Assembly: GCF_050920415.1 (NCBI RefSeq)
Contig: NZ_CP169309.1
Source: Escherichia coli
GTDB lineage: Bacteria; Pseudomonadota; Gammaproteobacteria; Enterobacterales; Enterobacteriaceae
Direction: 5' to 3' (one strand)
Length of the DNA: 64,000 nt
Part shown: in pieces, positions 9,237-42,806 of the stretch
Numbering within the stretch: position 1 is the stretch's first letter
Layout of the letters: every line of letters starts with the position of its first letter
Translations under genes and position numbers: made by a program
The notes under the pieces: model-generated
Seen by the model: only the letters and a program-made list of their open reading frames with translations
Told to the model about the DNA's origin: nothing
The model's database searches: none

Positions 9237-11202
<1,966 letters not shown>

Positions 11203-13597: not shown

Positions 13598-17310
<3,713 letters not shown>

Positions 17311-17330
<20 letters not shown>

Positions 17331-18630
17331 TCTCCCGCATATTGCCAGCATGGCCTTTAATGAGCCGCTGATGCTTGAACCCGCCTATGCGCGGGTTTTC
17401 TTTTGTGCGCTAGCAGGCCAGCTTGGGATCAGCCGCCTGACAGATGCGGTGTCCGGTGACAGCCTGACTGCCCCGGAGACACCCGCGACGCTGGCGTTAT
17501 CTGGTGATGATGACGGACCACGACAGGCCCGCAGTTATCAGGTCATGAACGGCATCGCCGTGCTGCCGGTTTCCGGCACGCTGGTCAGCCGGACGCGGGC
17601 GCTGCAGCCGTATTCGGGGATGACCGGTTACAACGGCATTATCGCCCGTCTGCAACAGGCTGCCAGCGATCCGATGGTGGACGGCATTCTGCTCGATATG
17701 GACACGCCCGGCGGGATGGTGGCGGGGGCATTTGACTGCGCTGACATCATCGCCCGTGTGCGTGACATAAAACCGGTATGGGCGCTTGCCAACGACATGA
17801 ACTGCAGTGCAGGTCAGTTGCTTGCCAGTGCCGCTTCCCGGCGTCTGGTCACGCAGACCGCCCGGACAGGCTCCATCGGCGTCATGATGGCTCACAGCAA
17901 TTACGGTGCAGCGCTGGAGAAACAGGGCGTGGAAATCACGCTGATTTACAGCGGCAGCCATAAGGTGGATGGCAACCCCTACAGCCATCTTCCGGATGAC
18001 GTCCGGGAAACACTGCAGTCCCGGATGGATGCAACCCGCCAGATGTTTGCGCAGAAAGTGTCGGCATATACCGGCCTGTCCGTGCAGGCTGTGCTGGATA
18101 CCGAGGCTGCAGTGTACAGCGGTCAGGAGGCCATTGATGCCGGACTGGCTGATGAACTTGTTAACAGTACCGATGCGATCACCGTCATGCGTGATGCACT
18201 GGATACACGTAAATCCCGTCTCTCAGGAGGGCGAATGACCAAAGAGACTCAATCAACAACTGTTTCAGCCACTGCTTCGCAGGCTGACGTTACTGGCGTG
18301 GTGCAAGCGACGGAGGGCGAGAACGCCAGCGCTGCGCAGCCGGACGTGAACGCGCAGATCACCGCAGCGGTTGCGGCAGAAAACAGTCGCATTATGGGGA
18401 TCCTCAACTGTGAGGAGGCTCACGGACGCGAAGAACAGGCATGCGTGCTGGCCGAAACCCCCGGTATGACCGTGGAAACGGCCCGCCGTATTCTGGCCGC
18501 AGCACCACAGAGTGCACAGGCGCGCAGTGACACTGCGCTGGATCGTCTGATGCAGGGGGCACCGGCGCCGCTGGCTGCAGGTAACCCGGCATCTGATGCC
18601 GTTAACGATTTGCTGAACACACCAGTGTAA
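17311..18630 (+). CDS. C: Head maturation protease/scaffold C (GTG start with GGAGGAG RBS); Nu3 scaffold encoded in-frame in its 3' portion
   Basis: 439-aa translation from GTG 17311 (VTAELRNLPHIASMAFNEPLMLEP...) matches lambda gpC; the ORF-track start at 17176 lies within B. Confidence 0.9.
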
Positions 18631-18639
18631 GGGATGTTT

Positions 18640-18972
18640 ATGACGAGCAAAGAAACCTTTACCCATTACCAGCCGCTGGGCAACAGTGACCCGGCTCATA
18701 CCGCAACCGCGCCCGGCGTATTGAGTGCGAAAGCGCCTGCAATGACCCCGCTGATGCTGGACACCTCCACCCGTAAGCTGGTTGCGTGGGATGGCACCAC
18801 CGACGGTGCTGCCGTTGGCATTCTTGCAGTTGCTGCTGACCAGACCAGCACCACACTGACGTTCTACAAGTCCGGCACGTTCCGTTATGAGGATGTGCTC
18901 TGGCCGGAGGCTGCCAGCGACGAGACGAAAAAACGGACCGCGTTTGCCGGAACGGCAATCAGCATCGTTTAA
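18640..18972 (+). CDS. D: Head decoration protein D
   Basis: [12 protein letters not shown]... matches lambda gpD (110 aa). Confidence 0.9.
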
Positions 18973-22603: not shown

Positions 22604-23028
22604 ATGTTCCTGAAAACCGAATCATTTGAACATAACGGTGTGACCGTCACGCTTTCTGAACTGTCAGCCCTGCAGCGCATTGAGCATCTCGCCCTGATGA
22701 AACGGCAGGCAGAACAGGCGGAGTCAGACAGCAACCGGAAGTTTACTGTGGAAGACGCGCCATCAGAACCGGCGCGTTTCTGGTGGCGATGTCCCTGTGG
22801 CATAACCATCCGCAGAAGACAAAGCTGCCGTCCATGAATGAAGCCGTTAAACAGATTGAGCAGGAAGTGCTTACCACCTGGCCCACGGAGGCAATTTCTC
22901 ATGCTGAAAACGTGGTGTACCGGCTGTCTGGTATGTATGAGTTTGTGGTGAATAATGCCCCTGAACAGACAGAGGACGCCGGGCCCGCAGAGCCTGTTTC
23001 TGCGGGAAAGTGTTCGACGGTGAGCTGA
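22604..23028 (+). pseudogene. G: Tail assembly chaperone G, disrupted by a 2-nt insertion near 22757-22760
   Basis: Two overlapping ORFs (22604..22837 and 22783..23028) each carry part of the lambda G sequence; reading switches frame at GAAGACGCGCCATC. Confidence 0.75.
23004..23010 (+). other. Programmed -1 ribosomal frameshift slippery heptamer GGGAAAG (G to G-T fusion)
   Basis: GGGAAAG at the 3' end of G with the T reading frame opening at this point, as in lambda. Confidence 0.8.
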
Positions 23029-23444: not shown

Positions 23445-25998
23445 ACCGGTAGGCGATCTGGTCGTTGATTTAAGTCTGGATGCGGCCAGATTTGACGAGC
23501 AGATGGCCAGAGTCAGGCGTCATTTTTCCGGTACGGAAAGTGATGCGAAAAAAACAGCGGCAGTCGTTGAACAGTCGCTGAGCCGACAGGCGCTGGCTGC
23601 ACAGAAAGCGGGGATTTCCGTCGGGCAGTATAAAGCCGCCATGCGTATGCTGCCTGCACAGTTCACCGACGTGGCCACGCAGCTTGCAGGCGGGCAAAGT
23701 CCGTGGCTGATCCTGCTGCAACAGGGGGGGCAGGTGAAGGACTCCTTCGGCGGGATGATCCCCATGTTCAGGGGGCTTGCCGGTGCGATCACCCTGCCGA
23801 TGGTGGGGGCCACCTCGCTGGCGGTGGCGACCGGTGCGCTGGCGTATGCCTGGTATCAGGGCAACTCAACCCTGTCCGATTTCAACAAAACGCTGGTCCT
23901 TTCCGGCAATCAGTCGGGTCTGACGGCAGATCGCATGCTGGTCCTGTCCAGAGCCGGGCAGGCGGCAGGGCTGACGTTTAACCAGACCAGCGAGTCACTC
24001 AGCGCACTGGTTAAGGCGGGGGTAAGCGGTGAGGCTCAGATTGCGTCCATCAGCCAGAGTGTGGCGCGTTTCTCCTCTGCATCCGGCGTGGAGGTGGACA
24101 AGGTCGCTGAAGCCTTCGGGAAGCTGACCACAGACCCGACGTCGGGGCTGACGGCGATGGCACGCCAGTTCCATAACGTGACGGCGGAGCAGATTGCGTA
24201 TGTTGCTCAGTTGCAGCGTTCCGGCGATGAAGCCGGGGCATTGCAGGCGGCGAACGAGGCCGCAACGAAAGGGTTTGATGACCAGACCCGCCGCCTGAAA
24301 GAGAACATGGGCACGCTGGAGACCTGGGCAGACAGGACTGCGCGGGCCTTCAAATCCATGTGGGATGCGGTGCTGGATATTGGTCGTCCTGATACCGCGC
24401 AGGAGATGCTGATTAAGGCAGAGGCTGCGTTTAAGAAAGCAGACGACATCTGGAATCTGCGCAAGGATGATTATTTTGTTAACGATGAAGCGCGGGCGCG
24501 TTACTGGGATGATCGTGAAAAGGCCCGTCTTGCGCTTGAAGCCGCCCGAAAGAAGGCTGAGCAGCAGACTCAACAGGACAAAAATGCGCAGCAGCAGAGC
24601 GATACCGAAGCGTCACGGCTGAAATATACCGAAGAGGCGCAGAAGGCTTACGAACGGCTGCAGACGCCGCTGGAGAAATATACCGCCCGTCAGGAAGAAC
24701 TGAACAAGGCACTGAAAGACGGGAAAATCCTGCAGGCGGATTACAACACGCTGATGGCGGCGGCGAAAAAGGATTATGAAGCGACGCTGAAAAAGCCGAA
24801 ACAGTCCGGCGTGAAGGTGTCTGCGGGCGATCGTCAGGAAGACAGTGCTCATGCTGCCCTGCTGACGCTTCAGGCAGAACTCCGGACGCTGGAGAAGCAT
24901 GCCGGAGCGAATGAGAAAATCAGCCAGCAGCGCCGGGATTTGTGGAAGGCAGAAAGTCAGTTCGCGGTACTGGAGGAGGCGGCACAACGTCGCCAGCTGT
25001 CCGCACAGGAGAAATCCCTGCTGGCGCATAAAGATGAGACGCTGGAGTACAAACGCCAGCTGGCTGCACTTGGCGACAAGGTTACGTATCAGGAGCGCCT
25101 GAACGCGCTGGCGCAGCAGGCGGATAAATTCGCACAGCAGCAACGGGCAAAACGGGCCGCCATTGATGCGAAAAGCCGGGGGCTGACTGACCGGCAGGCA
25201 GAACGGGAAGCCACGGAACAGCGCCTGAAGGAACAGTATGGCGATAATCCGCTGGCGCTGAATAACGTCATGTCAGAGCAGAAAAAGACCTGGGCGGCTG
25301 AAGACCAGCTTCGCGGGAGCTGGATGGCAGGCCTGAAGTCCGGCTGGAGTGAGTGGGAAGAGAGCGCCATGGACAGTATGTCGCAGGTAAAAAGTGCAGC
25401 CACGCAGACCTTTGATGGTATTGCACAGAATATGGCGGCGATGCTGACCGGCAGTGAGCAGAACTGGCGCAGCTTCACCCGTTCCGTGCTGTCCATGATG
25501 ACAGAAATTCTGCTTAAGCAGGCAATGGTGGGGATTGTCGGGAGTATCGGCAGCGCCATTGGCGGGGCTGTTGGTGGCGGCGCATCCGCGTCAGGCGGTA
25601 CAGCCATTCAGGCCGCTGCGGCGAAATTCCATTTTGCAACCGGAGGATTTACGGGAACCGGCGGCAAATATGAGCCAGCGGGGATTGTTCACCGTGGTGA
25701 GTTTGTCTTCACGAAGGAGGCAACCAGCCGGATTGGCGTGGGGAATCTCTACCGGCTGATGCGCGGCTATGCCACCGGTGGTTATGTCGGTACACCGGGC
25801 AGTCTGGCTGACAGCCGGTCGCAGGCGTCCGGGACGTTTGAGCAGAATAACCATGTGGTGATTAACAACGAAGGCACGAACGGGCAGATAGGGCCACAGG
25901 CGCTGAAGGCGGTTTATGACGTAGCCCGTAAGGCGGCAATGGATGTTGTGACCGGGCAGATGCGCGATGGTGGTCTGTTCTCCGGAGGTGGACGATGA
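23437..25998 (+). CDS. H: Tail tape measure protein H
   Basis: 853 aa, same length as lambda gpH, coiled-coil-rich translation. Confidence 0.95.
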   Translation: MAEPVGDLVVDLSLDAARFDEQMARVRRHFSGTESDAKKTAAVVEQSLSRQALAAQKAGISVGQYKAAMRMLPAQFTDVATQLAGGQSPWLILLQQGGQVKDSFGGMIPMFRGLAGAITLPMVGATSLAVATGALAYAWYQGNSTLSDFNKTLVLSGNQSGLTADRMLVLSRAGQAAGLTFNQTSESLSALVKAGVSGEAQIASISQSVARFSSASGVEVDKVAEAFGKLTTDPTSGLTAMARQFHNVTAEQIAYVAQLQRSGDEAGALQAANEAATKGFDDQTRRLKENMGTLETWADRTARAFKSMWDAVLDIGRPDTAQEMLIKAEAAFKKADDIWNLRKDDYFVNDEARARYWDDREKARLALEAARKKAEQQTQQDKNAQQQSDTEASRLKYTEEAQKAYERLQTPLEKYTARQEELNKALKDGKILQADYNTLMAAAKKDYEATLKKPKQSGVKVSAGDRQEDSAHAALLTLQAELRTLEKHAGANEKISQQRRDLWKAESQFAVLEEAAQRRQLSAQEKSLLAHKDETLEYKRQLAALGDKVTYQERLNALAQQADKFAQQQRAKRAAIDAKSRGLTDRQAEREATEQRLKEQYGDNPLALNNVMSEQKKTWAAEDQLRGSWMAGLKSGWSEWEESAMDSMSQVKSAATQTFDGIAQNMAAMLTGSEQNWRSFTRSVLSMMTEILLKQAMVGIVGSIGSAIGGAVGGGASASGGTAIQAAAAKFHFATGGFTGTGGKYEPAGIVHRGEFVFTKEATSRIGVGNLYRLMRGYATGGYVGTPGSLADSRSQASGTFEQNNHVVINNEGTNGQIGPQALKAVYDVARKAAMDVVTGQMRDGGLFSGGGR

Positions 25999-26324
25999 AA
26001 ACCTTCCGCTGGAAAGTGAAACCCGGTATGGATGTGGCTTCGGCCCCTTCCGTCAGGAAGGTGCGCTTTGGTGATGGCTATTCCCAGCGTGCGCCTGCCG
26101 GGCTGAATGCCGACCTGAAAACGTACAGTGTGACGCTTTCCGTGACCCGGGAGGAGGCCCGGCATCTGGAGTCGTTTCTGGCAGAGCACGGGGGCTGGAA
26201 GGCCTTTCTGTGGACGCCGCCTTATGGTTACAGGCAGATAAAGGTGACCTGCGCAAAATGGTCGTCGCAGGTCAGTATGTTGCGTGTTGAGTTCAGCGCA
26301 GAGTTTAAACAGGTGGTGAACTGA
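25995..26324 (+). CDS. M: Tail tip protein M
   Basis: 109 aa, matches lambda gpM. Confidence 0.9.
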   Translation: MKTFRWKVKPGMDVASAPSVRKVRFGDGYSQRAPAGLNADLKTYSVTLSVTREEARHLESFLAEHGGWKAFLWTPPYGYRQIKVTCAKWSSQVSMLRVEFSAEFKQVVN

Positions 26325-27022
26325 TGCAGGATATCCGGCAGGAAACACTGAATGAATGCACCCGTGCGGAGCAGTCGGCCAGCGTGGTGCTCTGGGAAAT
26401 CGATCTGACAGAGGTCGGTGGAGAACGTTATTTTTTCTGTAATGAGCAGAACGAAAAAGGTGAGCCGGTCACCTGGCAGGGGCGACAGTATCAGCCGTAT
26501 CCCATTCAGGGGACGGGATTTGAACTGAACGGCAAGGGCAGTGCTGCCCGTCCGACACTGACGGTCTCTAACCTGTACGGCATGGTCACCGGGATGGCGG
26601 AAGATCTGCAGAGTCTGGTTGGCGGAACGGTGGTCCGGCGTAAGGTTTACGCCCGTTTTCTGGATGCGGTGAACTTCGTCAACGGAAACAGAGACGCCGA
26701 TCCGGAGCAGGAGGTGATCAGCCGCTGGCGCATCGAGCAGTGCAGCGAACTGAGCGCGGTGAGTGCCTCCTTTGTACTGTCCACGCCGACGGAAACGGAT
26801 GGCGCTGTTTTTCCGGGACGTATCATGCTGGCCAACACCTGCACCTGGACCTATCGCGGTGACGAGTGCGGTTATAGCGGTCCGGCTGTCGCGGATGAAT
26901 ATGACCAGCCAACGTCCGATATCACGAAGGATAAATGCAGCAAATGCCTGAGCGGTTGTAAGTTCCGCAATAACGTCGGCAACTTTGGCGGCTTCCTTTC
27001 CATTAACAAACTTTCGCAGTAA
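26324..27022 (+). CDS. L: Tail tip protein L
   Basis: 232 aa, matches lambda gpL including the C-terminal Cys cluster. Confidence 0.9.
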   Translation: MQDIRQETLNECTRAEQSASVVLWEIDLTEVGGERYFFCNEQNEKGEPVTWQGRQYQPYPIQGTGFELNGKGSAARPTLTVSNLYGMVTGMAEDLQSLVGGTVVRRKVYARFLDAVNFVNGNRDADPEQEVISRWRIEQCSELSAVSASFVLSTPTETDGAVFPGRIMLANTCTWTYRGDECGYSGPAVADEYDQPTSDITKDKCSKCLSGCKFRNNVGNFGGFLSINKLSQ

Positions 27023-27027
27023 ATCCC

Positions 27028-27771
27028 ATGACACAGACAGAATCAGCGATTCTGGCGCACGCCCGGCGATGTGCGCCAGCGGAGTCGTGCGGCTTCGTGG
27101 TAAGCACGCCGGAGGGGGAAAGATATTTCCCCTGCGTGAATATCTCCGGTGAGCCGGAGGCGTATTTCCGGATGTCGCCGGAAGACTGGCTGCAGGCAGA
27201 AATGCAGGGTGAGATTGTGGCGCTGGTCCACAGCCACCCCGGTGGTCTGCCCTGGCTGAGTGAGGCCGACCGGCGGCTGCAGGTGCAGAGTGATTTGCCG
27301 TGGTGGCTGGTCTGCCTGGGCGTGATTCACAAGTTCCGCTGTGTGCCGTATCTCACCGGGCGGCGCTTTGAGCACGGAGTGACGGACTGTTACACGCTGT
27401 TCCGGGACGCTTACCATCTGGCGGGAATTGAGATGCCGGATTTTCACCGCGAGGATGACTGGTGGCGTCACGGTCAGAATCTCTATCTTGACAATATGGA
27501 GGCAACGGGTTTTTACCGTGTCGCACTGACAGAGGCGCAGCCGGGCGATGTGCTGCTGTGCAGCTTTGGTTCATCGGTGCCGAATCATGCTGCCATTTAC
27601 TGCGGCGACGGCGAGCTGCTGCACCATATTCCTGAACAACTGAGCAAACGAGAGAGGTATACCGACAAATGGCAGCGACGCACACACTCCCTCTGGCGTC
27701 ACCGGGCATGGCACGCATCTGCCTTTACGGGGATTTGCAACGATTTGGCCGCCGCATCGACCTTCGTGTGA
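27028..27771 (+). CDS. K: Tail tip assembly protein K (MPN/NlpC-P60 type)
   Basis: Translation MTQTESAILAHARRCAPAESCGFVVS... matches lambda gpK; overlaps I by about 100 nt as in lambda. Confidence 0.9.
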   Translation: MTQTESAILAHARRCAPAESCGFVVSTPEGERYFPCVNISGEPEAYFRMSPEDWLQAEMQGEIVALVHSHPGGLPWLSEADRRLQVQSDLPWWLVCLGVIHKFRCVPYLTGRRFEHGVTDCYTLFRDAYHLAGIEMPDFHREDDWWRHGQNLYLDNMEATGFYRVALTEAQPGDVLLCSFGSSVPNHAAIYCGDGELLHHIPEQLSKRERYTDKWQRRTHSLWRHRAWHASAFTGICNDLAAASTFV

Positions 27772-28310
27772 AAACGGGGGCTGAAGCCATCCGGGCGCTG
27801 GCCACACAGCTCCCGGCGTTTCGTCAGAAACTGAATGAGGGCTGGTATCAGATACGGATTGCCGGGCGTGATGCAGGTGAAACCGAATTATCAGCCCGTC
27901 TGAATGAGCCGCTGGAAAATGGTGCCGTGATCCACATCGTGCCGCGTCTGGCGGGTGCTAAAAGTGGCGGTATTTTTCAGGCAGTGCTGGGGGCGGCTGT
28001 TATGGCAGTTGCTATATGGATGCCAGGAGTAGGAATTATGGCGAGTAATCTGCTGTTTTCTCTCGGTGCCAGTATGACGCTTGGCGGTGTTGCACAGATG
28101 CTGGCCCCTAAACCCAAAACCCCCCGCACACAGACAACGGATAACGGCAAACAGAACACCTATTTTTCTTCACTGGATAACATGGTTGCCCAGGGCAATG
28201 TCCTGCCCGTTCTGTACGGTGAAATGCGTGTGGGGTCGCGCGTGGTTTCTCAGGAGATCAGCACGGCAGACGAAGGGGACGGTGGTCAGGTTGTGGTGAT
28301 TGGTCGCTGA
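27669..28310 (+). CDS. I: Tail tip assembly protein I
   Basis: Translation matches lambda gpI; 60-bp gap to J as in lambda. Confidence 0.9.
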   Translation: MAATHTLPLASPGMARICLYGDLQRFGRRIDLRVKTGAEAIRALATQLPAFRQKLNEGWYQIRIAGRDAGETELSARLNEPLENGAVIHIVPRLAGAKSGGIFQAVLGAAVMAVAIWMPGVGIMASNLLFSLGASMTLGGVAQMLAPKPKTPRTQTTDNGKQNTYFSSLDNMVAQGNVLPVLYGEMRVGSRVVSQEISTADEGDGGQVVVIGR

Positions 28311-28370
28311 TGCAAAATGTTTTATGTGAAACCGCCTGCGGGCGGTTTTATCGTTTATGGAGCGTGAGGA

Positions 28371-31300
28371 ATGGGTAAAGGCAGCAGTAAGGGGCATACC
28401 CCGCGCGAAGCGAAGGACAACCTGAAGTCCACGCAGCTGCTGAGTGTGATCGATGCCATCAGCGAAGGGCCGGTTGAAGGTCCGGTGGATGGATTAAAAA
28501 GCGTGCTGCTGAACAGTACACCTGTGCTGGACAGTGAGGGGAATACCAATATCTCCGGCGTCACGGTGGTGTTCCGGCCGGTGAGCAGGAGCAGACACCG
28601 CCGGAGGGGTTTGAATCCTCCGGCTCCGAGACGGTGCTGGGTACGGAAGTGAAATACGACACGCCGATCACCCGCACCATTACGTCTGCAAACATCGACC
28701 GTCTGCGCTTTACCTTCGGTGTACAGGCACTGGTGGAAACCACCTCAAAGGGTGACAGGAATCCGTCGGAAGTCCGCCTGCTGGTTCAGATACAACGTAA
28801 CGGTGGCTGGGTGACGGAAAAGGACATCACCATTAAGGGTAAAACCACTTCACAGTATCTGGCCTCGGTGGTGGTGGATAACCTGCCGCCGCGCCCGTTC
28901 AGTATCCGGATGCGCAGGATGACGCCGGACAGCACCACAGACCAGCTGCAGAACAAAACGCTCTGGTCGTCATACACTGAAATCATCGATGTGAAACAGT
29001 GCTACCCGAACACGGCACTGGTTGGCGTACAGGTGGACTCGGAACAGTTCGGCAGTCAGCAGGTGAGCCGTAATTATCATCTGCGCGGGCGCATTCTGCA
29101 GGTGCCGTCGAACTATAACCCGCAGACGCGGCAATACAGCGGTATCTGGGACGGAACGTTTAAACCGGCATACAGCAACAACATGGCCTGGTGTCTGTGG
29201 GATATGCTGACCCATCCGCGCTACGGCATGGGGAAACGTCTTGGTGCGGCGGATGTGGATAAATGGGCGCTGTATGTCATCGGCCAGTACTGCGACCAGT
29301 CAGTGCCGGACGGCTTTGGTGGCACGGAGCCGCGCATCACCTGTAATGCGTACCTGACCACACAGCGCAAGGCGTGGGATGTGCTCAGTGATTTCTGCTC
29401 GGCGATGCGCTGTATGCCGGTATGGAACGGGCAGACGCTGACGTTCGTGCAGGACCGACCGTCGGATAAGGTGTGGACCTATAACCGCAGTAATGTGGTG
29501 ATGCCGGATGATGGCGCGCCGTTCCGCTACAGCTTCAGCGCCCTGAAGGACCGCCATAATGCCGTTGAGGTGAACTGGATTGACCCGGACAACGGCTGGG
29601 AGACGGCGACAGAGCTTGTTGAAGATACGCAGGCCATTGCCCGTTACGGTCGTAATGTCACGAAGATGGATGCCTTTGGCTGTACCAGCCGGGGGCAGGC
29701 ACACCGCGCCGGGCTGTGGCTGATTAAAACGGAACTGCTGGAGACGCAGACCGTGGATTTCAGCGTGGGTGCTGAAGGGCTTCGCCATGTACCGGGCGAT
29801 GTCATTGAAATCTGCGATGATGACTATGCCGGTATCAGCACCGGTGGTCGCGTGCTGGCGGTGAACAGCCAGACCCGGACGCTGACGCTCGACCGTGAAA
29901 TCACGCTGCCATCCTCCGGTACCACGCTGATAAGCCTGGTTGACGGAAGTGGCAATCCGGTCAGCGTGGAGGTTCAGTCCGTCACCGACGGCGTGAAGGT
30001 AAAAGTGAGCCGTGTTCCTGACGGTGTTGCTGAATACAGCGTATGGGGGCTGAAGCTGCCGACGCTGCGCCAGCGACTGTTCCGCTGCGTGAGTATCCGT
30101 GAGAACGACGACGGCACGTATGCCATCACCGCCGTGCAGCATGTGCCGGAAAAAGAGGCCATCGTGGATAACGGGGCGCACTTTGACGGCGAACAGAGTG
30201 GCACGGTGAATGGTGTCACGCCGCCAGCGGTGCAGCACCTGACCGCAGAAGTCACTGCAGACAGCGGGGAATATCAGGTGCTGGCGCGCTGGGACACGCC
30301 GAAGGTGGTGAAGGGCGTGAGCTTCCTGCTTCGCCTGACCGTGGCAGCGGATGACGGCAGTGAGCGGCTGGTCAGCACGGCCCGGACGACGGAAACAACA
30401 TACCGCTTCAGGCAGCTGGCGCTGGGGCGGTACACGCTGACAGTCCGGGCGGTAAATGCGTGGGGGCAGCAGGGCGATCCGGCATCGGTATCGTTCCGGA
30501 TTGCCGCACCGGCAGCGCCGTCGCGGATTGAGCTGACGCCGGGCTATTTTCAGATAACCGCCACGCCGCATCTTGCGGTTTATGACCCGACGGTACAGTT
30601 TGAGTTCTGGTTCTCGGAAAAGCGGATTACCGATATCAGGCAGGTTGAAACCACAGCCCGCTATCTTGGTACGGCGCTGTACTGGATAGCCGCCAGTATC
30701 AATATCAAACCGGGCCATGATTATTACTTTTATATCCGCAGTGTGAACACCGTTGGCAAATCGGCATTCGTGGAGGCTGTTGGTCAGCCGAGTGATGATG
30801 CTTCCGGCTATCTGGATTTTTTCAAAGGAGTGATAGGGAAAACACACCTGGCTCAGGAGCTGTGGACGCAGATTGATAACGGTCAGCTTGCGCCTGACCT
30901 GGCTGAAATCAGGACGTCCATTACGGATGTCAGCAATGAAATCACACAGACCGTCAATAAGAAACTGGAAGACCAGAGTGCAGCGATCCAGCAGATACAG
31001 AAGGTTCAGGTTGATACAAATAATAACCTGAACAGCATGTGGGCTGTGAAGCTGCAGCAGATGCAGGACGGACGCCTTTATATCGCGGGTATCGGTGCCG
31101 GTATTGAGAACACCCCTGACGGCATGCAGAGTCAGGTGCTGCTGGCGGCGGACAGGATTGCGATGGTTAATCCTGCGAATGGCAACACAAAACCGATGTT
31201 TGTTGGTCAGGGCGATCAGATATTCATGAACGACGTGTTCCTGAAGCGCCTGACGGCCCCCACCATTACCAGCGGCGGCAATCCCCCGGCCTTTTCCCTG

Positions 31301-31849
31301 ACACCAGACGGAAAGCTGACCGCTAAAAATGCGGATATCAGTGGCAGTGTGAATGCGAACGCCGGGACGCTCAATAATGTCACGATTAATGAGAACTGTC
31401 AGATTCTGGGGAAACTGTCAGCTAATCAGATTGAAGGCGATATTGTTAAAACGGTGGGTAAGGCTTTCCCCCGTGACTCCCGGGCACCGGAGCGGTGGCC
31501 GTCAGGGACCATTACCGTCAGGGTTTATGACGATCAGCCTTTTGACCGGCAAATTGTCATTCCGGCGGTGGCATTCAGCGGTGCCAGACATGAGAGAGAG
31601 CATAATGACATTTATTCATCATGCCGTCTGATAGTGCGGAAAAACGGTGCTGAAATTTATAACCGTACCGCGCTGGATAATACGCTGATTTATACCGGTG
31701 TGATTGATATGCCAGCGGGTCGCGGTCACATGACGCTGGAGTTTTCGGTATCAGCGTGGCTGGTGAATGACTGGTATCCCACGGCAAGCATCAGCGATTT
31801 GCTGGTTGTGGTGATGAAGAAATCCACAGCCGGTATCAGTATCAGCTGA
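28371..31849 (+). pseudogene. J: Central tail fibre / host-specificity protein J, disrupted by a 1-nt frameshift near 28578; C-terminal receptor-binding region appears divergent from lambda J
   Basis: N-terminal 93-aa ORF (28371..28652) matches the J N-terminus; the rest (28634..31849) continues in another frame. Confidence 0.8.
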
Positions 31850-31907
31850 ATGTTCAGAAACCAGACCGGGTGCCAGAAATGGCACCTTTTTTATTTGTGG
31901 AACGAAT

Positions 31908-34492
31908 ATGGCAGTAAAGATTTCAGGCGTGCTGAAAGACGGTGCAGGTAAACCGGTACAGAACTGCACCATTCAGCTGAAAGCAAAACGTAACAGTACC
32001 ACGGTGGTGGTGAACACGGTGGCCTCAGAAAATCCGGATGAAGCCGGGCGTTACAGTATGGACGTTGAGTACGGCCAGTACGGTGTCATCCTGCTGGTTG
32101 AAGGTTTTCCGCCGTCACATGCCGGCACCATCACCGTGTATGAAGATTCTGAGCCGGGGACGCTGAATGATTTTCTCGGTGCCATGACGGAGGATGATGC
32201 CCGTCCGGAGGCACTGCGCCGTTTTGAACTGATGGTGGAAGAGGTGGCGCGTAACGCGTCCGCAGTGGCACAGAACACGGCAGCCGCGAAAAAATCCGCC
32301 GGCGATGCCGGAACATCTGCCCGTGAGGCGGCAACCCATGCGACTGATGCTGCAGGCTCAGCACGCGCCGCCAGCACGTCCGCCGGACAGGCTGCGACGT
32401 CAGCACAGGAAGCATCTTCCGGCGCAGAAACAGCCTCAGCAAAGGCCGCTGAGGCATCAAAAAGTGCTGCCGCTGCAGAGTCCTCAAAAAGCGCGGCGGC
32501 CACCAGTGCCGGTGCCGCGAAAACGTCAGAAACGAATGCGGCAGCGTCACAACAATCAGCCGCCACGTCTGCATCCACCGCGACCACGAAAGCGTCAGAA
32601 GCTGCCACGTCAGCCAGGGATGCGGCGGCCTCAAAAGAGGCGGCAAAATCATCAGAAACGAGCGCAGCCTCGAGCGCCGGTAGTGCAGCTTCCTCGGCAA
32701 CGGCGGCAGGAAATTCCGCGAAGGCGGCAAAGACGTCTGAGACGACGCCAGGTCTTCTGAAACGGCAGCGGAACAGAGTGCCTCCGCAGCAGCAGGCTCA
32801 GAAACTGCCGCTGCATCATCGTCCCGTGAGGCGTCAGTTAAAGCGGAGGAGGCATCAGCCAGTGCCACCGCCGCCGGAAAATCGGCAGAAAGTGCCGCAT
32901 CGTCCGCTTCAGCAGCCACAACGAAGGCTGGCGAAGCCACTGAACAGGCCACTGCAGCAGTGAGGTCTGCTTCCGCTGCGAGGACATCCGAGACGAACGC
33001 GAAAGCGTCGGAAACCCGTGCAGAATCTTCAGAAACGGCTGCCGTATCGTCCGCCAGTTCGGCGGCGTCATCAGCATCATCGGCGTCAGCTTCAAAAGAT
33101 GAGGCGGCAAGGCTGGCGTCAGAGGCGCAGGGCAGTGCCACGACGGCATCCGCGAAGGCGACAGAGGCAGCTGGCAGTGCGACAGCGGCAGCACAGAGCA
33201 AAAGCACGGCAGAATCCGCGGCAACGCGCGCCGAGACTGCGGCAAAACGGGCGGAGGATATTGCGTCTGCCGTGGCGCTTGAGGATGCGAGCACGACGAA
33301 AAAGGGGATAGTCCAGCTCAGCAGTGCAACCAACAGCACTTCCGAGTCACTGGCGGCAACACCAAAGGCCGTAAAAGCCGCCTGTGAGAATGCTGAGAAA
33401 CGACTGCAGAAAGATAAGAACGGTGCGGATGTCCCCGACAAAGACACCTTTACGAAAAATATTGGTGCCTGCCGTGCCTTCGGTGGGGCCGTAAGCACAA
33501 CGACAGGAGACTGGACGACCGCACAGTTTATCGGGTGGCTGGATTCTCAGGGCGCATTTAACCACCCATACTGGATGTGCAAGGGCTCCTGGTCTTACGG
33601 TAATAATAAAATCATCACGGATACGGGCTGCGGAAATATTCATCTCGCCGGCGCTGTCATTGAGGTGATGGGGATAAAGTCAGCGATGACGATCCGCATA
33701 ACCACACCGACAACATCCAGCGGAAGTGGAACGGCGAATGCGCAGTTTACCTATATTAATCATGGTGATGGTTATTCCCCTGGCTGGCGTCGTGACTACA
33801 ACACGAAAAACAAGCCACCGGCCTTTGCGCTGGGAAAAACCGGGGAAACGCTCGCCGATACAGATGCCGTCGCCTGGAACCTGGACAGTGGCGCTTATTG
33901 TGCACAGGATGGTGGCGCATCATCCTTAATTCTTCATTTTAATACAGGGGAAGGCAGCTGCCCCGCGGTCCAGTTTCGGGTGAATTACCGGAATGGCGGG
34001 ATATTTTACCGCTCCGCCCGTGATGGCTATGGCTTTGAGGCGGACTGGGAGCGTCTGTTCACGACAACGGGCGGGACCCTGGAAGGTGCTGTGGGTATCG
34101 GTGCACAGAATACGCTGGGCGGCCATTCACTTGCGCTGGGGAGGGGCGACACAGGCCTGAAACAAAACGGCGACGGTAATCTTGATGTTTACGCCGGTAA
34201 CGCACGTGTAATGCGCTTTACAAACGGCAGCATTCAGGTCAGTAAAGGGCTGAATGTGTCCGGGCGCGTTAATCCTTCCGATTACAGTAATTTTGATATC
34301 CGCTATGTCAGGGATATCCGGCTGGGTACGCGTGTTGTTCAGGGCATGCAAAAAGGCGTGACGTATGAGAAATCCGGCCATGTCATTACGGGGCTTTGTC
34401 TTGTCGGGGATGCTGATGGCGATAACTCAGCGGTTTACCGGCCGGTGCAAAAATACATAAACGGCACATGGTTTAACGTATCGCAGGTATAA
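31908..34492 (+). pseudogene. stf: Side tail fibre protein Stf, disrupted by a 1-nt frameshift near 32747 within the Ala/Ser/Thr-rich repeat region
   Basis: N-terminus MAVKISGVLKDGAGKPVQNCTIQLKA... and the conserved GIVQLSSATNSTSESLAATPKAVKAA motif lie in different frames; genuine repeat sequence continues in the other frame across 32741. Confidence 0.75.
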
Positions 34493-34495
34493 GTA

Positions 34496-35026
34496 ATGCA
34501 GCACTTAAAAAATATTACAGCAGGTAATCCCAAAACCGTTGCTCAGTATCAACTGACAAAAAATTTTGATGTTATCTGGTTGTTTTCAGAGGACGGAAGA
34601 AACTGGTATGAAGAAGTGAGTAACTTTCAGAAAGACACAATAAAGATGGCTTACGATGAAAACAATATTATCGTTGCCATCACCCGGGATGCCTCAACGC
34701 TTAATCCGGCGGGATTAAGTGTTGTTGAGGTGGCAGATATAACGGCGAACCGCCGTGCAGACGATTCGGGGCAGTGGATGTATCTGGACGGTCAGGTGAG
34801 GAAACGCGAGTATTCGTCAGAGGAAGTCAACAGACAGACAGAGCAACGCAAGGCCACGCTGCTCAGTGAAGCAGATACCATCATCCGGCTTCTGGAGCGG
34901 TCGGTAAGGCTGAGTATGGCCACGGAAGAAGAGCGAACCCGGCTGTCGGCCTGGGAGCGTTACAGCGTCCTGCTCAGCCGGGTGGATTCAGCGAACCCGG
35001 AATGGCCACAAAAGCCAGAGCAGTAA
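34496..35026 (+). CDS. tfa: Tail fibre assembly protein Tfa
   Basis: 176-aa ORF immediately downstream of stf; sequence typical of lambdoid Tfa. Confidence 0.8.
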
Positions 35027-35290
35027 ATACCGGAGAAGAGGATTTTACGTTAATCAGTAATTACAGGCAGAGATGATAAAAGCCGCGGAACATTGTATGC
35101 AGGAATGTGCTGCGGCATACCGGATAACTGCGTATGTTGTGGAGTTTTATTTGGGGCATATATGGGACAGAAACAGGCCTCAGATAGGCAGTGATATTGA
35201 GATCAGGATATTTTTGAAAAGATGCAACCATTTGAAAAAACATAGAAAACCCCAAGAAAACCACAGGATGAAAAAAAACACCTATGAATC

Positions 35291-36574
35291 ATGGATTTCC
35301 AGTTATATTCGCTCGGCGCAGCGTTAGTGTTTCATGAAATATTTTTTCCTGAATCATCAACGGCAATGGCGTTAATTCTGGCAATGGGAACCTACGGTGC
35401 AGGTTATGTGGCGCGTATTGTCGGAGCATTTATTTTCGGCAAAATGGGCGACAGAATCGGGCGTAAAAAAGTGCTCTTTATTACCATCACTATGATGGGG
35501 ATCTGTACCACCTTAATTGGTGTGCTGCCGACCTATGCACAAATTGGTGTGTTTGCGCCAATTTTGCTGGTGACGCTGCGTATTATTCAGGGGCTGGGGG
35601 CAGGCGCGGAAATTTCCGGTGCCGGTACGATGCTGGCGGAATATGCGCCAAAAGGTAAGCGCGGAATTATCTCCTCATTTGTTGCTATGGGGACTAACTG
35701 CGGAACCTTGAGCGCAACGGCAATCTGGGCCTTTATGTTCTTCATTCTCAGTAAAGAGGAACTGTTGGCGTGGGGATGGCGTATACCGTTCCTGGCGAGC
35801 GTTGTCGTGATGGTCTTTGCTATCTGGTTGCGTATGAATCTGAAAGAAAGCCCGGTCTTTGAGAAGGTTAACGACAGCAACCAACCGACAGCAAAACCTG
35901 CACCTGCTGGTAGCATGTTCCAGAGCAAATCCTTCTGGCTGGCAACAGGGCTGCGTTTTGGTCAGGCTGGTAACTCAGGTTTAATTCAGACTTTCCTTGC
36001 AGGCTATTTAGTGCAGACGTTATTGTTTAACAAAGCAATTCCAACAGATGCATTGATGATCAGTTCGATTCTCGGCTTTATGACCATTCCGTTCCTTGGT
36101 TGGTTATCCGATAAAATTGGTCGCCGGATCCCGTATATTATTATGAATACCTCTGCGATTGTGCTGGCGTGGCCAATGCTTTCTATCATCGTAGATAAAA
36201 GCTATGCCCCGAGCACCATTATGGTTGCACTGATTGTGATTCATAACTGTGCGGTGCTGGGATTATTTGCTCTGGAAAACATTACCATGGCAGAAATGTT
36301 CGGCTGTAAAAATCGCTTTACCCGGATGGCCATTTCTAAAGAAATTGGTGGTCTTATCGCTTCCGGTTTTGGTCCTATCCTGGCGGGTATTTTCTGCACC
36401 ATGACGGAATCCTGGTATCCGATCGCCATTATGATCATGGCATATTCAGTGATTGGTTTAATCTCTGCGCTGAAAATGCCAGAAGTGAAAGACCGTGATT
36501 TAAGTGCACTGGAAGATGCCGCGGAAGATCAACCGCGTGTTGTAACAGCTGCGCAACCTTCAAGAAGTCTGTAA
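35291..36574 (+). pseudogene. ydfJ: MFS transporter YdfJ, 5'-truncated by the prophage insertion (prophage right junction about 35285-35290)
   Basis: 427-aa ORF lacking the first TM region of the family; in-frame stop immediately upstream of the ATG; same arrangement as Qin-interrupted ydfJ in K-12. Confidence 0.8.
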
Positions 36575-36663
36575 ATCCTCCATCCCTTCTCTTACCGGAG
36601 AGGGGATTTTTTATTCATATAACAAAACATGCAGCTTGCCATATTTAAATTTAAGGAATTGTT

Positions 36664-38124
36664 ATGGGAAATAATTTGTTATCAGCAAAAGCGACGCTCC
36701 CTGTTTATGATCGTAATAACCTGGCCCCAAGAATTGTTCATTTAGGCTTTGGTGCATTTCACCGTGCGCATCAGGGCGTGTATGCCGATATTCTTGCTTC
36801 GGAACATTACAGTGACTGGGGATATTATGAGGTCAACTTAATCGGCGGCGAACAGCAAATTGCCGATTTACAACAGCAAGATAATCTTTATACCGTTGCG
36901 GAAATGTCGGCCGATGCGTGGACGGCTCGCGTCGTTGGCGTCGTTAAAAAAGCCTTGCACATACAAATAGATGGCTTAGAAACCGTGCTGGCTGCGATGT
37001 GTGAACCGCAAATCGCGATTGTCTCTCTGACAATCACCGAAAAAGGGTATTTCCACTCTCCGGCGACCGGACAGTTAATGCTCGATCACCCGATGGTCGT
37101 TGCCGACGTGCAAAATCCCCACCAGCCGAAAACTGCAACAGGGGTGATTGTTGAGGCGCTGGCTCGCCGTAAAGCGGCAGGACTTCCCGCATTTACCGTA
37201 ATGTCATGTGACAACATGCCAGAAAACGGTCATGTTATGCGTGACGTTGTCACTTCCTACGCGCAAGCTGTTGATGTAAAACTGGCACAATGGATCGAAG
37301 AAAACGTGACTTTCCCATCAACAATGGTGGACCGTATTGTGCCCGCAGTGACAGAGGATACGCTGGCGAAAATCGAACAACTTACCGGTGTGCGCGATCC
37401 TGCTGGCGTTGCCTGTGAACCTTTCCGCCAGTGGGTAATAGAAGATAACTTTGTTGCCGGACGTCCGGAATGGGAAAAAGCGGGAGCCGAACTGGTTAGT
37501 GATGTGCTGCCTTATGAAGAGATGAAGTTGCGCATGCTCAACGGCAGTCATTCATTCCTGGCGTATCTGGGATATCTTGCGGGATATCAGCACATTAATG
37601 ACTGCATGGAAGATGAAAATTATCGCCGTGCGGCACATGCCTTGATGTTGCAGGAACAGGCGCCGACGCTGAAAGTGCAGGGCGTGGATCTGCAAAATTA
37701 TGCGGATCGACTAATTGAACGCTACAGTAATCCAGCGTTACGCCATCGAACCTGGCAGATTGCGATGGATGGCAGCCAGAAATTGCCACAGCGGATGTTG
37801 GATTCTGTTCGCTGGCATCTGGCGCATGACAGCAAGTTCGATCTGCTGGCGCTGGGCGTCGCGGGTTGGATGCGTTATGTCGGTGGTGTTGATGAACAGG
37901 GAAATCAGATAGAAATCAGTGACCCACTGTTACCTGTTATTCAGAAGGCAGTACAAAGTAGTGCTGAAGGGACAGCGCGCGTCCAGTCATTGCTGGCAAT
38001 TAAGGCGATCTTTGGTGATGATTTACCAGGCAATAGTTTGTTTACGACAAAAGTAACGGAAGTGTACTTGTCTTTATTAGCGCATGGCGCGAAAGCGACC
38101 GTGGCGAAATATTCCGTGAAGTAA
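36664..38124 (+). CDS. ydfI: Mannitol dehydrogenase-family oxidoreductase YdfI
   Basis: 486 aa; recognised E. coli YdfI. Confidence 0.9.
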
Positions 38125-38127
38125 AAA

Positions 38128-38158
38128 AAGCAATGCCGCCATCGGCGGCATTCACACG
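38128..38158 (-). terminator. Rho-independent terminator for ydfZ (hairpin aatgccgcc-atc-ggcggcatt, T-run on minus strand)
   Basis: 9-bp perfect stem between convergent ydfI and ydfZ; A-run on the + strand corresponds to a U-run for the minus-strand transcript. Confidence 0.6.
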
Positions 38159-38159
38159 C

Positions 38160-38363
38160 TTAGTTCATGCCGAGACGAATCAGGTCCAGTGGTGCCAGTT
38201 TCTCTTCACAACCTTCAACAACTACGGTTTTTCCGCGGCGGATTTGCTCAGCGGTCAGACCTTCAGTATCAATCGACAGGATCTTGCCAGTGTGACCGGT
38301 GCCGCTAACCATAACACGGCTGCCAGTGGTGATTGCGTTACGGTTACGATCGTAGGTCGTCAT
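38160..38363 (-). CDS. ydfZ: Small protein YdfZ
   Basis: 67-aa translation [32 protein letters not shown]... recognised as YdfZ. Confidence 0.9.
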
Positions 38364-38539
38364 AGGTGTTTTCTCCTTTCTGATTTACAGTCGAAGCCCA
38401 CGTAACGGGCGCAATATAAATACTCCTGTCGAGTGAAATATTTTTTGTTTTTGATCAAGCTCACATCTTTTTTGATGCATGCATGAGCCATATGACGGAG
38501 GGAAAAACTCTCACCCCGGATGGGATGAGAGGAATTGAA

Positions 38540-39226
38540 TTACTCTTCGCTAAACCAGTCGCTGTTTTCCTGGCGGATCTGGCGCACGGATTCGCTGATT
38601 TCCTGCAAATGTTGCGTCATTGCACGTTCTACCGCATCGCCATCACGTTTTTGCAGGGCAGAGAAAATCTCAAGATGCTGGCGTAACAGCATTTCTGGTG
38701 GAGAAACGTGGTCGAAACTCATATAGCGCACGCGATCAACGGTCGCTTTCAGGTTCTCAATGGTATCCCACGCCAGTTGACAGTCGGCAATCTGCGTCAG
38801 GAGTTGATGGAAGTTGTCATCAAGTTCAAAAAAATCATCCAGTTGCTTGCGCTCAATGGCAATGCGTTGCTGGTGAAGATTTTGTTCCAGTTGGTAGCAC
38901 TGGCTTTCGGTAATCATGCTCGCCGCCCGACGCGCCACCGCGCACTCAATGGCCTGACGGATAAAACTGCCGTTGTGCACCTGGGCCATGGAAATTTTGT
39001 TGACGTAGCTGCCACGCTGCGGACGAATTTGAATCAGGCCGTTTTCCGCCAGTTTAATAAAGGCTTCACGAACCGGCTGGCGTGACACATTGAAACGAAC
39101 AGAAACTTCTTTTTCCGACAACGGTGTGCCTGGTGCAATCAGGCAATGGACAATGTCGCGGCGAAGAATACGATAAATCTGCTGATTGACAGGCTGTGTG
39201 GGATTAAGTTGCGTTTCGACGGTCAT
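38540..39226 (-). CDS. ydfH: GntR-family transcriptional regulator YdfH (RspR)
   Basis: 228 aa; N-terminal GntR HTH plus FCD domain; recognised E. coli YdfH. Confidence 0.9.
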
Positions 39227-39314
39227 TCGTTCTTGCTTGTGAGTGAGTTAACTGCATGAGTCTACCACTTTTTTGTGACAAGCAATAACCCGGCAGTTAC
39301 GCCGGGTATAAAAA

Positions 39315-40061
39315 TTACTGACGGTGGACATTCAGTCCGGCATAGCTTTGGGTAACCGGCATCATTTCCAGGGTATTGATATTGACGTGAGCAGGCAGCG
39401 TTGACACCCACCAGACGGCTTCGCTGACATCTTCTGGCGTCAATGCAACTGTGTTTTGATAGGTTTTTTCGGCTTTACCGTCATCACCTTTAAAGCGGAC
39501 ATTAGAAAACTCGGTGCCACCCACCAGTCCCGGTTCGATGTCTGTGACACGTACTGCCGTACCGTGCAGATCTGTGCGTAGATTAAGGCTGAACTGACGA
39601 ACAAACGCTTTCGTCGCACCATAAACGTTACCACCAGCATACGGCCAGCTGCCTGCCGTGGAGCCAATGTTAATGATATGACCATGATTACGTTCAACCA
39701 TACCCGGTAAGACGGCCCGCGTCATATATACCAGGCCTTTGTTGTTGGTATCAATCATCGTTTCCCAGTCTTCAACGCTGGCTTTATGCGCAGGCTCCAT
39801 GCCCAGCGCCAGACCGGCATTGTTTACCAGGATATCAATATTGCACCACTCGGCAGGAAGCGATGCCAGCATCTCTTCAATAGCGGCGCGATTACGAACG
39901 TCCAGTTGGGCGATATACAGATTATCACCCAGTTCGTCTTTTAACTCCTGCAACCGCTCCTGGCGACGGCCAGTGGCGATAACTTTATGCCCTTGTTGAA
40001 TAAAACGACGAGTAATGCATTCACCAAAACCTGCCGTTGCTCCAGTTACTAAAACGATCAT
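39315..40061 (-). CDS. ydfG: NADP-dependent 3-hydroxy acid dehydrogenase YdfG (SDR family)
   Basis: MIVLVTGATAGFGECITRRF... with Rossmann TGxxxGxG motif; start set at the MIVLV methionine. Confidence 0.9.
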   Translation of the reverse strand: MIVLVTGATAGFGECITRRFIQQGHKVIATGRRQERLQELKDELGDNLYIAQLDVRNRAAIEEMLASLPAEWCNIDILVNNAGLALGMEPAHKASVEDWETMIDTNNKGLVYMTRAVLPGMVERNHGHIINIGSTAGSWPYAGGNVYGATKAFVRQFSLNLRTDLHGTAVRVTDIEPGLVGGTEFSNVRFKGDDGKAEKTYQNTVALTPEDVSEAVWWVSTLPAHVNINTLEMMPVTQSYAGLNVHRQ

Positions 40062-40197
40062 CTCACTGTTCCTCAACGCTTTTGTGTGTCAATAACATAG
40101 CACGTGATGCTTAAGAGCGGGTAATACTGGTTTGCAAGATTGCACTCCGTTATCAGTAAGCCTACGCTATGGAACACCTCGCGTTCAGGAGAAGAAA

Positions 40198-42243
40198 ATG
40201 ACAACAATGAATCCTTTCCTTGTGCAAAGCACACTGCCGTATCTGGCTCCCCATTTTGATCAAATTGCCAATCATCACTATCGACCGGCATTTGATGAGG
40301 GAATGCAGCAAAAGCGGGCCGAAATTGCCGCCATTGCGCTCAACCCGCAAACACCTGATTTCAACAATACTATTCTGGCACTGGAGCAGAGTGGGGAACT
40401 GCTGACCCGCGTCACCAGCGTTTTTTTTGCGATGACTGCGGCGCATACCAATGATGAATTACAGCGTCTTGATGAGCAGTTTTCCGCTGAACTGGCAGAA
40501 CTGGCTAATGATATCTATCTGAACGGTGAATTATTCGCGCGAGTAGATGCTGTCTGGCAGCGCCGTGAATCCGAGGGGCTTGATAGTGAATCCATTCGCC
40601 TGGTGGAGGTTATTCATCAACGTTTTGTCCTTGCCGGAGCCAAACTTGCGCGAGCTGATAAAGCAAAATTAAAAGTTCTTAATACAGAAGCTGCGACCCT
40701 GACCAGCCAGTTTAACCAGCGGTTACTTGCGGCAAATAAATCCGGCGGTCTGGTTCTGGACGATATTGCGCAACTGGCTGGGATGAGCGAACAGGAGATT
40801 GCGCTGGCGGCAGAGGCGGCTCGCGAGAAAGGTCTGGATAACAAATGGCTTATTCCGCTGCTGAATACCACCCAGCAACCGGCGCTTGCTGAACTGCGCG
40901 ATCGCGCGACGCGTGAAAAACTGTTTACTGCGGGCTGGACGCGAGCGGAAAAAAATGATGCCAATGATACCCGCGCTATCATTCAACGTCTGGTGGAGAT
41001 CCGTGCACAACAGGCTACATTACTTGGTTTTCCTCATTATGCCGCATGGAAAATCGCCGATCAGATGGCAAAAACACCTGAAGCAGCACTTAACTTTATG
41101 CGGGAAATTGTTCCAGCGGCGCGTCAACGTGCGAGCGATGAATTAGCCTCCATACAGGCGGTTATCGATAAGCAGCAGGGCGGGTTTAGCGTGCAGCCGT
41201 GGGACTGGGCATTTTATGCCGAACAGGTACGGCGGGAGAAATTTGATCTTGATGAGGCGCAGCTCAAGCCATATTTTGAATTAAACACGGTGTTGAATGA
41301 AGGTGTATTCTGGACCGCGAATCAGCTCTTCGGTATTAAGTTTGTCGAACGTTTTGATATTCCTGTCTACCATCCTGACGTTCGTGTGTGGGAAATTTTT
41401 GATCATAATGGCGTGGGGCTGGCGTTATTTTACGGTGATTTCTTCGCCCGTGATTCAAAAAGCGGCGGTGCATGGATGGGCAATTTTGTTGAGCAATCAA
41501 CGCTGAATGAAACGCATCCGGTAATTTATAACGTCTGCAATTATCAGAAACCCGCTGCCGGTGAACCTGCGTTGTTACCCTGGGATGATGTGATAACCTT
41601 ATTCCATGAATTTGGTCATACGCTGCACGGCCTTTTTGCCCGCCAGCGTTATGCCACGCTTTCCGGTACCAACACGCCGCGTGATTTTGTCGAATTTCCA
41701 TCGCAAATCAACGAACACTGGGCAACGTATCCGCAGGTATTCGCTCGCTACGCCCGGCATTATCAGAGCGGGGCAGCAATGCCTGACGAACTGCAACAGA
41801 AAATGCGTAAAGCCAGCCTGTTCAACAAAGGGTATGAGATGAGCGAACTGCTTAGCGCCGCACTTCTCGATATGCGCTGGCATTGCCTGGAAGAAAACGA
41901 AGCAATACAGGATGTCGATGATTTCGAATTGCGGGCGCTGGTGGCGGAAAATATGGATCTTCCTGCTATACCGCCACGCTATCGCAGCAGTTATTTCGCC
42001 CATATTTTTGGTGGCGGATATGCCGCAGGTTATTACGCTTATCTGTGGACACAAATGTTGGCCGATGATGGTTACCAGTGGTTTGTTGAGCAGGGCGGAT
42101 TAACGCGTGAAAATGGGCTGCGTTTTCGCGAGGCGATCCTTTCCAGAGGTAACAGCGAAGATCTGGAACGCCTGTATCGACAATGGCGCGGTAAGGCTCC
42201 TCAGATTATGCCGATGCTGCAACATCGTGGCTTGAACATATAA
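40198..42243 (+). CDS. dcp: Dipeptidyl carboxypeptidase II (M3 zinc metallopeptidase)
   Basis: 681 aa from ATG 40198 (MTTMNPFLVQSTLPYLAPHFDQI...); HEFGH zinc-binding motif present. Confidence 0.95.
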   Translation: MTTMNPFLVQSTLPYLAPHFDQIANHHYRPAFDEGMQQKRAEIAAIALNPQTPDFNNTILALEQSGELLTRVTSVFFAMTAAHTNDELQRLDEQFSAELAELANDIYLNGELFARVDAVWQRRESEGLDSESIRLVEVIHQRFVLAGAKLARADKAKLKVLNTEAATLTSQFNQRLLAANKSGGLVLDDIAQLAGMSEQEIALAAEAAREKGLDNKWLIPLLNTTQQPALAELRDRATREKLFTAGWTRAEKNDANDTRAIIQRLVEIRAQQATLLGFPHYAAWKIADQMAKTPEAALNFMREIVPAARQRASDELASIQAVIDKQQGGFSVQPWDWAFYAEQVRREKFDLDEAQLKPYFELNTVLNEGVFWTANQLFGIKFVERFDIPVYHPDVRVWEIFDHNGVGLALFYGDFFARDSKSGGAWMGNFVEQSTLNETHPVIYNVCNYQKPAAGEPALLPWDDVITLFHEFGHTLHGLFARQRYATLSGTNTPRDFVEFPSQINEHWATYPQVFARYARHYQSGAAMPDELQQKMRKASLFNKGYEMSELLSAALLDMRWHCLEENEAIQDVDDFELRALVAENMDLPAIPPRYRSSYFAHIFGGGYAAGYYAYLWTQMLADDGYQWFVEQGGLTRENGLRFREAILSRGNSEDLERLYRQWRGKAPQIMPMLQHRGLNI

Positions 42244-42287
42244 ACACCACCAATGGCTGGCCTGGAGATATCGCCAGGCCAGCCTGG

Positions 42288-42806
42288 TTAGAGCAGTAAT
42301 TGCAGCAGCTGGGCGAGGGCAAACCTCACCGCTAAAGCTAATACCGTTTCGCAGTCGCCAGCAAAATGCATAACCGCAGTGTAGTTCTGGCCTTTAAAAT
42401 GCCACGCGAACCAGACGGTACCCGCTGGTGTACCATCTTCACCGCCCTCCGGTCCGCCGTAGCCGGTAATGGCAATACTGACATCAGCATCCGCACGCTC
42501 TATGGCACCGGTTGCCATTTCTGCTGCCACTTTCTCACTCACCGCAGAATATCGTTCAAGAGATTGCTGGCTTACGCTGAGGATTTTCATCTTTGCCTGA
42601 TCGGTGAAAGTAACAAAGCCTGCACCGTAAAATTTGGGTGTATCTTCAGCTGCACACAGGGCGCTAGCCAACTTACCGCCGGTGCATGATTCGGCGGTAG
42701 TTAAGCGTAATTGATCCGCGATAAGTCTTTGACTCAACGCGGATGTCAGGTTTTCAATAGTGTCGGTATCTGCGAGTTGTACAATTTTATCTTTATTAAT
42801 GTTCAC
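42288..42806 (-). CDS. ydeJ: CinA-family protein YdeJ
   Basis: 172-aa translation recognised as YdeJ. Confidence 0.85.
   Translation of the reverse strand: MNINKDKIVQLADTDTIENLTSALSQRLIADQLRLTTAESCTGGKLASALCAAEDTPKFYGAGFVTFTDQAKMKILSVSQQSLERYSAVSEKVAAEMATGAIERADADVSIAITGYGGPEGGEDGTPAGTVWFAWHFKGQNYTAVMHFAGDCETVLALAVRFALAQLLQLLL

Follow-up and report, generated by a model that had tools for sequence, protein, structure and literature searches.

Lambda gpJ (P03749; PDB 8IYK, 8XCJ) ends in a LamB-binding domain, and lambda h434 is classically OmpC-dependent. Natural gpJ C-termini have been grafted onto lambda gpJ at residue 964, and two of the resulting chimeras, A8 and 1A2, use OmpC for DNA delivery to a host deleted for lamB; 1A2 works with EDL933-type OmpC and not with K-12 OmpC (Brodel et al., Nature 2024, PMC11338833). 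The 1A2 protein, the gpJ of the anti-STEC vector EB003, is an engineered chimera that consists of the lambda N-terminus to residue 964 followed by a recoded C-terminus (PMC11338833), and a follow-up preprint uses it against O157 strains (bioRxiv 10.1101/2025.02.28.640725). Furthermore, single substitutions in the J of phage 21 or lambda can add the use of OmpC or OmpF (PMC11336670).

The window analysed here, a stretch of 64,000 nucleotides of Escherichia coli DNA (NZ_CP169309.1), matches the chromosome of E. coli MFDS1022581 (NZ_CP169399.1) colinearly from end to end, with an identity of 99.4–99.99%. A lambda-like prophage contributes its late region, at positions 1–35,290, in which tblastn of the MFDS1022581 neighbours gives the gene order Q, DNA methyltransferase, holins, endolysin, bor, terminase, portal, head genes, Z-U-V-G-T-H-M-L-K-I-J, side tail fibre and tail-fibre assembly. 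The right junction of the prophage (35024–36571) lies in ydfJ, which is 5′-truncated and is the site of the Qin cryptic prophage in K-12, and beyond it runs ordinary chromosome, from ydfI through dcp, mar and lsr. J sits in a lambda-like tail module, H-M-L-K-I-J-stf-tfa, as judged by tblastn and by the annotation of the relative. There is no lom between J and stf, which are separated by only a 58-nt spacer (31850–31907), unlike in lambda, h434 and PhiR55_1, where lom is present after J. Two insertion sequences, an IS2 and an IS21-family element (Table 1), both lie between the endolysin gene (6980–7522) and bor (11423–11713), and the spanin region is therefore probably disrupted.

In the record, J is divided between two ORFs in different frames. 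The 93-aa ORF starts with MGKGSSKGHTPREAKDNLKSTQLL, matching the lambda J N-terminus, and tblastn on the window places residues 1–69 of intact gpJ at 28371–28577 with 100% identity; the J frame is already open from 28577, and residues 70–1159 follow, again at 100% identity with the intact homologue, the two ORFs overlapping by 19 nt (28634–28652). When the gene is aligned with the J of lambda (NC_001416) and with its closest intact homologue, a single gap appears over its whole length: the relatives read TTCCGGGCCGG where the window reads TTCCGGCCGG (in a second rendering of the context, GTGTTCCGGGCCGGTGAG and GTGTTCCGGCCGGTGAG, respectively), and the lost G, one of a GGG run, falls at the boundary between codon 69 (CGG) and codon 70. 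Adding one G gives a stop-free J of 1159 aa (hereafter repaired J), the protein being 100% identical to WP_086251841.1, the annotated intact gpJ of MFDS1022581. An uninterrupted J frame of about 1130–1160 codons is present in every relative examined and is broken in the window; the gpJ of PhiR55_1 and those of the long-tailed Stx2a phages and PPompW prophages are intact, unlike that of the window. The first-pass annotation had described two J ORFs in different frames with a 1-nt loss near codon 70, and its coordinates, ORF lengths and codon all agree with the ORF list and the alignments. Both this split and the C-terminal divergence described below are direct alignment results rather than statistical patterns, and chance is not at issue for either.

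The gene is a standard lambda-family gpJ, carried by an E. coli prophage at ydfJ. The 1071-aa ORF alone scores 2196 bits against the NCBIfam profile lambda_TipJ (NF049904; cut-off 1950), covering profile positions 90–1163, and repaired J contains six Pfam domains in the expected order, with E-values from 1e-30 to 1e-43. This domain order and the gene order M-L-K-I-J-stf-tfa are common to the window and lambda. The encoded gpJ would comprise hub domains, two FNIII/Ig domains, a helical shaft, a beta-prism fibre and a C-terminal Ig-like receptor-binding domain (region names after Ge and Wang, 2024, PMC11101478).

Table 1. Features of the J locus and of the surrounding prophage, in window coordinates and in residues of repaired J.
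Feature	Position (nt)	Strand	Residues of repaired J	Remarks
IS2	7636–8966			1,331 bp; TnpA and TnpB above NCBIfam cut-offs; no copy in MFDS1022581
IS21-family element (istA/istB)	9237–11202			directly beside IS2; common to the window and MFDS1022581
Tail-assembly chaperone gene G, frameshifted	22604–23028			2-nt CG insertion at 22756–22757
GC-rich hairpin and T-run	28325–28352			AAACCGCCTGCGGGCGGTTTTATCGTTT; after gene I, ahead of the J start
J 5′ fragment	28371–28652	+		ORF list; 93 aa: 69 codons of authentic J followed by 24 in the wrong frame, then a stop
1-nt deletion site	28576–28577	+		GG in the window; GGG in lambda, MFDS1022581, the draft assemblies and 81 IMG/VR contigs
Long ORF, remainder of J	28634–31849	+		ORF list; 1071 aa; GTG start at 28634
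Hub and FNIII/Ig domains			1–805	98% to lambda; about 35% to HK97, N15 and phi80
FNIII-A_GpJ			86–207	Pfam
Phage-tail_3			330–498	Pfam
Ig_J			610–714	Pfam
Ig_J_second			716–818	Pfam
First mosaic segment, alpha-helical shaft and upper beta-prism fibre	30785–31219	+	806–950	41% to lambda, with a 27-aa insertion; 99% to PhiR55_1
Phage_Tail_Tip			872–1000	Pfam
Conserved island, lower beta-prism	31220–31384	+	951–1005	96% to lambda, 93% to h434
Receptor-binding region	31385–31846	+	1006–1159	44% to lambda, 41% to h434, 94% to PhiR55_1
Ig_GpJ_C, receptor-binding domain	31454–31846	+	1029–1159	Pfam
Terminator-like hairpin (31868–31887) and T-run	31868–31897	+		just 3′ of the J stop; consensus match
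Side-tail-fibre gene stf, split	31908–34492			one A lost at about 32744

Compared with lambda gpJ, the window protein is alike in the hub and FNIII/Ig domains and in the conserved island, and it differs in the shaft, in the receptor domain, in the missing lom of its locus and in the broken frame of the record (identities in Table 1). The divergence begins at about residue 806 and extends over 354 residues, as two swapped blocks with a 55-residue island between them, and this island holds the junction (lambda residue 964) that was used for the gpJ chimeras (PMC11338833). The earlier description of the last 300 or so residues as divergent from lambda is thus real in substance and imprecise in extent, since the divergence starts further upstream and is broken by the island. 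In the alignments it had proposed, residues 1006–1159 gave no significant blastp match to the J of HK97, N15 or phi80 (E > 0.3), which places the region outside the FhuA-directed class of phi80 and N15, and identity to lambda residues 978–1132 was 44% over 154 residues, outside the LamB-type domain of lambda and phage 21.

The gpJ gene of PhiR55_1 (PV340571) is 95.8% identical in nucleotides to that of the window over its full length, and tblastn of the last 202 residues against phage records returned 53 at 90% identity or more, among them the temperate ECOR phages PhiR55_1 and PhiR46_1, PPompW prophages, many long-tailed Stx2a phages and P-EibA. The 470-nt DNA of the domain occurs in 3,346 of 5,426 complete E. 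coli genomes (at least 80% identity and at least 80% coverage), and in 1,862 records at 90% identity or more. The receptor-binding class of the window is the commonest in E. coli and is present in most genomes, so that the swap suggested by the first-pass annotation, while supported, is not an unusual one.

The best PDB match of the domain is 9WCA/9WCB, "A8 gpJ 713", ahead of lambda gpJ; A8 is one of the chimeras of Brodel et al. (2024, PMC11338833). Strings of window DNA matched only A8 in the supplement of that paper, 1A2 being recoded; because the 1A2 DNA is both recoded and OCR-damaged there, it was compared by a frameshift-tolerant alignment, in which 140 of the 155 readable positions were identical to the last 160 residues of the window protein (at least 90%), with about 13 real substitutions in the domain and the conserved junction region the same. 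A8 is identical at 97 of 159 positions (61%). A8 and h434 share the Ig_GpJ_C fold family with the window, yet their receptor domains are separate sequence classes. On this likeness the window domain can be assigned to the 1A2 class, and the native phage would most likely adsorb irreversibly to OmpC, the dependence on OmpC being known for the chimera and predicted for the window.

It is improbable that the window domain, although of the 1A2 class, recognises something else than OmpC, such as LamB or a different porin. About 8–10% of the residues differ from 1A2, and single substitutions in the J of phage 21 or lambda can widen receptor use (PMC11336670). Any of the roughly 13 substitutions, as read from an OCR-damaged supplement, could shift the specificity for OmpC alleles. 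We also found no stated receptor for the nearest natural phage, PhiR55_1, its outer-membrane receptor not being stated in the SNIPE paper that uses the PhiR phages. These phages were reportedly described by Brenes and Laub in 2025. Against another receptor, the domain is at least 90% identical to an OmpC-dependent domain, compared with 44% to the LamB-binding domain of lambda, and both 1A2 and the more distant A8 are OmpC users, which suggests that the whole clade is OmpC-directed. OmpC is therefore the best-supported receptor, and the earlier proposal of a receptor other than LamB is a sound one by homology.

The frameshift, by comparison with other genomes, is private to this record. Complete E. 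coli genomes (3,480 of them, with 5,651 J copies) were matched with a 70-nt probe spanning the site, and no copy carried the deleted allele; the best identity was 98.6%, which equals one gap, and 99% was reached nowhere. The best match among RefSeq complete E. coli genomes is 99.9% identical and intact. In IMG/VR, the exact 33-mer with the deletion gave no match, and the intact 34-mer at the same site gave 81 matches in contigs. The truncated products (the 93-aa and 1071-aa pieces of J, 351 aa of stf and 77 aa of G) have no exact match among about 15 billion proteins. Furthermore, three draft assemblies, found through contigs that encode the exact M protein of the window, cover the region independently. 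Window positions 25750–36322 (10.6 kb) recur without a substitution in two of them, GCA_015518365.1 and GCA_045005245.1, which depart from the window only by two 1-nt gaps, where J and stf have each lost a base. In GCA_035787075.1, the third, these two gaps reappear along with one substitution. In the flanking chromosome, positions 43592–64000 differ from MFDS1022581 by two substitutions and no indel, and positions 35291–43848 add no further differences, giving 2 SNPs in 28.7 kb.

Two other tail genes are broken in a similar manner. In G the window reads GACGCGCC where both MFDS1022581 and STEC_7v read GACGCC, leaving a 77-aa ORF (22604–22837) and a separate remainder (22783–23028). In stf, GACGAACGCC has become GACGACGCC, giving ORFs of 351 and 510 aa; with the A put back, stf reads as one ORF of 861 aa, the same as in MFDS1022581 and in a zero-substitution draft assembly. 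The split is like the stf frameshift of lambda PaPa in kind only.

Being private, and lying in DNA that is otherwise identical to independent intact assemblies, the J deletion is probably an error of the consensus or the assembly in multi-copy prophage DNA, J-like DNA being found at a median of three places per E. coli genome and at six in MFDS1022581. The spontaneous indel rate of E. coli is about one-tenth of its substitution rate in mutation-accumulation studies, and three indels without substitutions are accordingly improbable by mutation. The tail module, with isolated small indels at three sites and not one substitution beside them, shows the reverse of what spontaneous mutation would leave, and this argues for an artefact. 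The indel pattern is that expected of an unpolished or mis-polished consensus in multi-copy prophage DNA. The support is nevertheless indirect, coming from sequence comparison; the runs concerned are short (GGG, AA, CGCG) rather than the long homopolymers where long-read errors usually concentrate; and the window-specific indels number only three, their restriction to the prophage half not being significant alone (p about 0.17). The IS2 and IS21-family insertions, moreover, may mark a decaying prophage that gathers real frameshifts. A genuine and very recent inactivation, in which the ydfJ prophage would be defective and decaying, with private frameshifts in J, G and stf, and J a pseudogene that leaves no functional tail tip, is accordingly a serious alternative, though an unlikely one. 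Real lineage-specific lesions do occur in this prophage, as the IS insertions indicate, namely the IS21-family element in the lysis region and the extra IS2 (7636–8966) without counterpart in the closest relative; the close relative MFDS1022581 has frameshifts of its own, in the portal gene and IS21, and tail genes with frameshifts are common among E. coli prophages. Yet such an inactivation would have to produce three indels and no substitution over at least 10.6–14 kb relative to independent assemblies, next to a chromosome with 2 SNPs in 28.7 kb, and none of the three indels is found in any other genome.

A frameshift that is tolerated or functional, whether by −1 ribosomal frameshifting within 28577–28652 or by translation of a truncated J from the GTG at 28634, is extremely improbable. 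The 19-nt overlap of the ORFs and a J frame open from 28577 would be compatible with recoding, and programmed frameshifting is used elsewhere in the lambda-type tail module, at G-T. However, no slippery heptamer of the form X XXY YYZ was seen around the deletion (by eye rather than by systematic scan), and neither the 5,651 J copies nor IMG/VR contain the split allele, so that nothing about the split arrangement is conserved; on these two grounds recoding and reinitiation were rejected. For reinitiation in particular, no Shine-Dalgarno-like sequence was seen before the GTG, and the product would lose the first 88 residues of J. Very unlikely, too, is a reading in which the G, J and stf frameshifts are real and came from recent selection or indel-biased mutation that disabled the tail and spared the head and lysis genes, or one in which the roughly 13 substitutions relative to 1A2 retarget the domain to an undescribed OmpC allele or porin.

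The split J described by the first-pass annotation is hence true of the record and probably not of the organism, since independent assemblies with 0–1 substitutions in 10.6 kb are intact; resequencing that restores the frame, which it had named as refuting its reading, is matched by these assemblies by proxy. If a consensus or assembly error is corrected in the record, the prophage would encode a complete tail tip, probably targeting OmpC; were the frameshift genuine, it would amount to a trivial and recent pseudogenisation, in a prophage ridden with IS elements. Neither the C-terminal class of J nor the frameshift is novel, and the locus matters little in itself: the gene family, mosaic swapping of gpJ C-termini and this class of receptor domain are all documented, and the 1A2 class is already in engineered delivery vectors. 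It does carry a caution: where a prophage gene is multi-copy and its DNA matches other assemblies at every other position, a lone 1-nt indel should not be taken as pseudogenisation without read support.

Several smaller features of the region can be added. The hairpin between gene I and J is absent from the output of the terminator scan; the corresponding place in HK97 and N15 carries a putative terminator in the annotation. The stf deletion, private to this record, adjoins a CCAGG (Dcm) motif. MFDS1022581, the closest complete genome, has private indels of its own in the same prophage: istA/istB of IS21 hold three and the portal gene a fourth, and the annotation treats all of these genes as frameshifted pseudogenes. 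That small indels keep to prophage or IS DNA, in the one record as in the other, strengthens the suspicion of assembly error in repeated DNA. The substitutions that separate the window from MFDS1022581 are clustered: about 68 fall in the portal/protease region (16368–18650) and about 25 in M and the end of H (25400–26330), where two indels, at 26159 and 26164, compensate each other. The remainder of the prophage is almost the same in the two strains, and the clusters look like gene-conversion patches from other resident lambdoid prophages.
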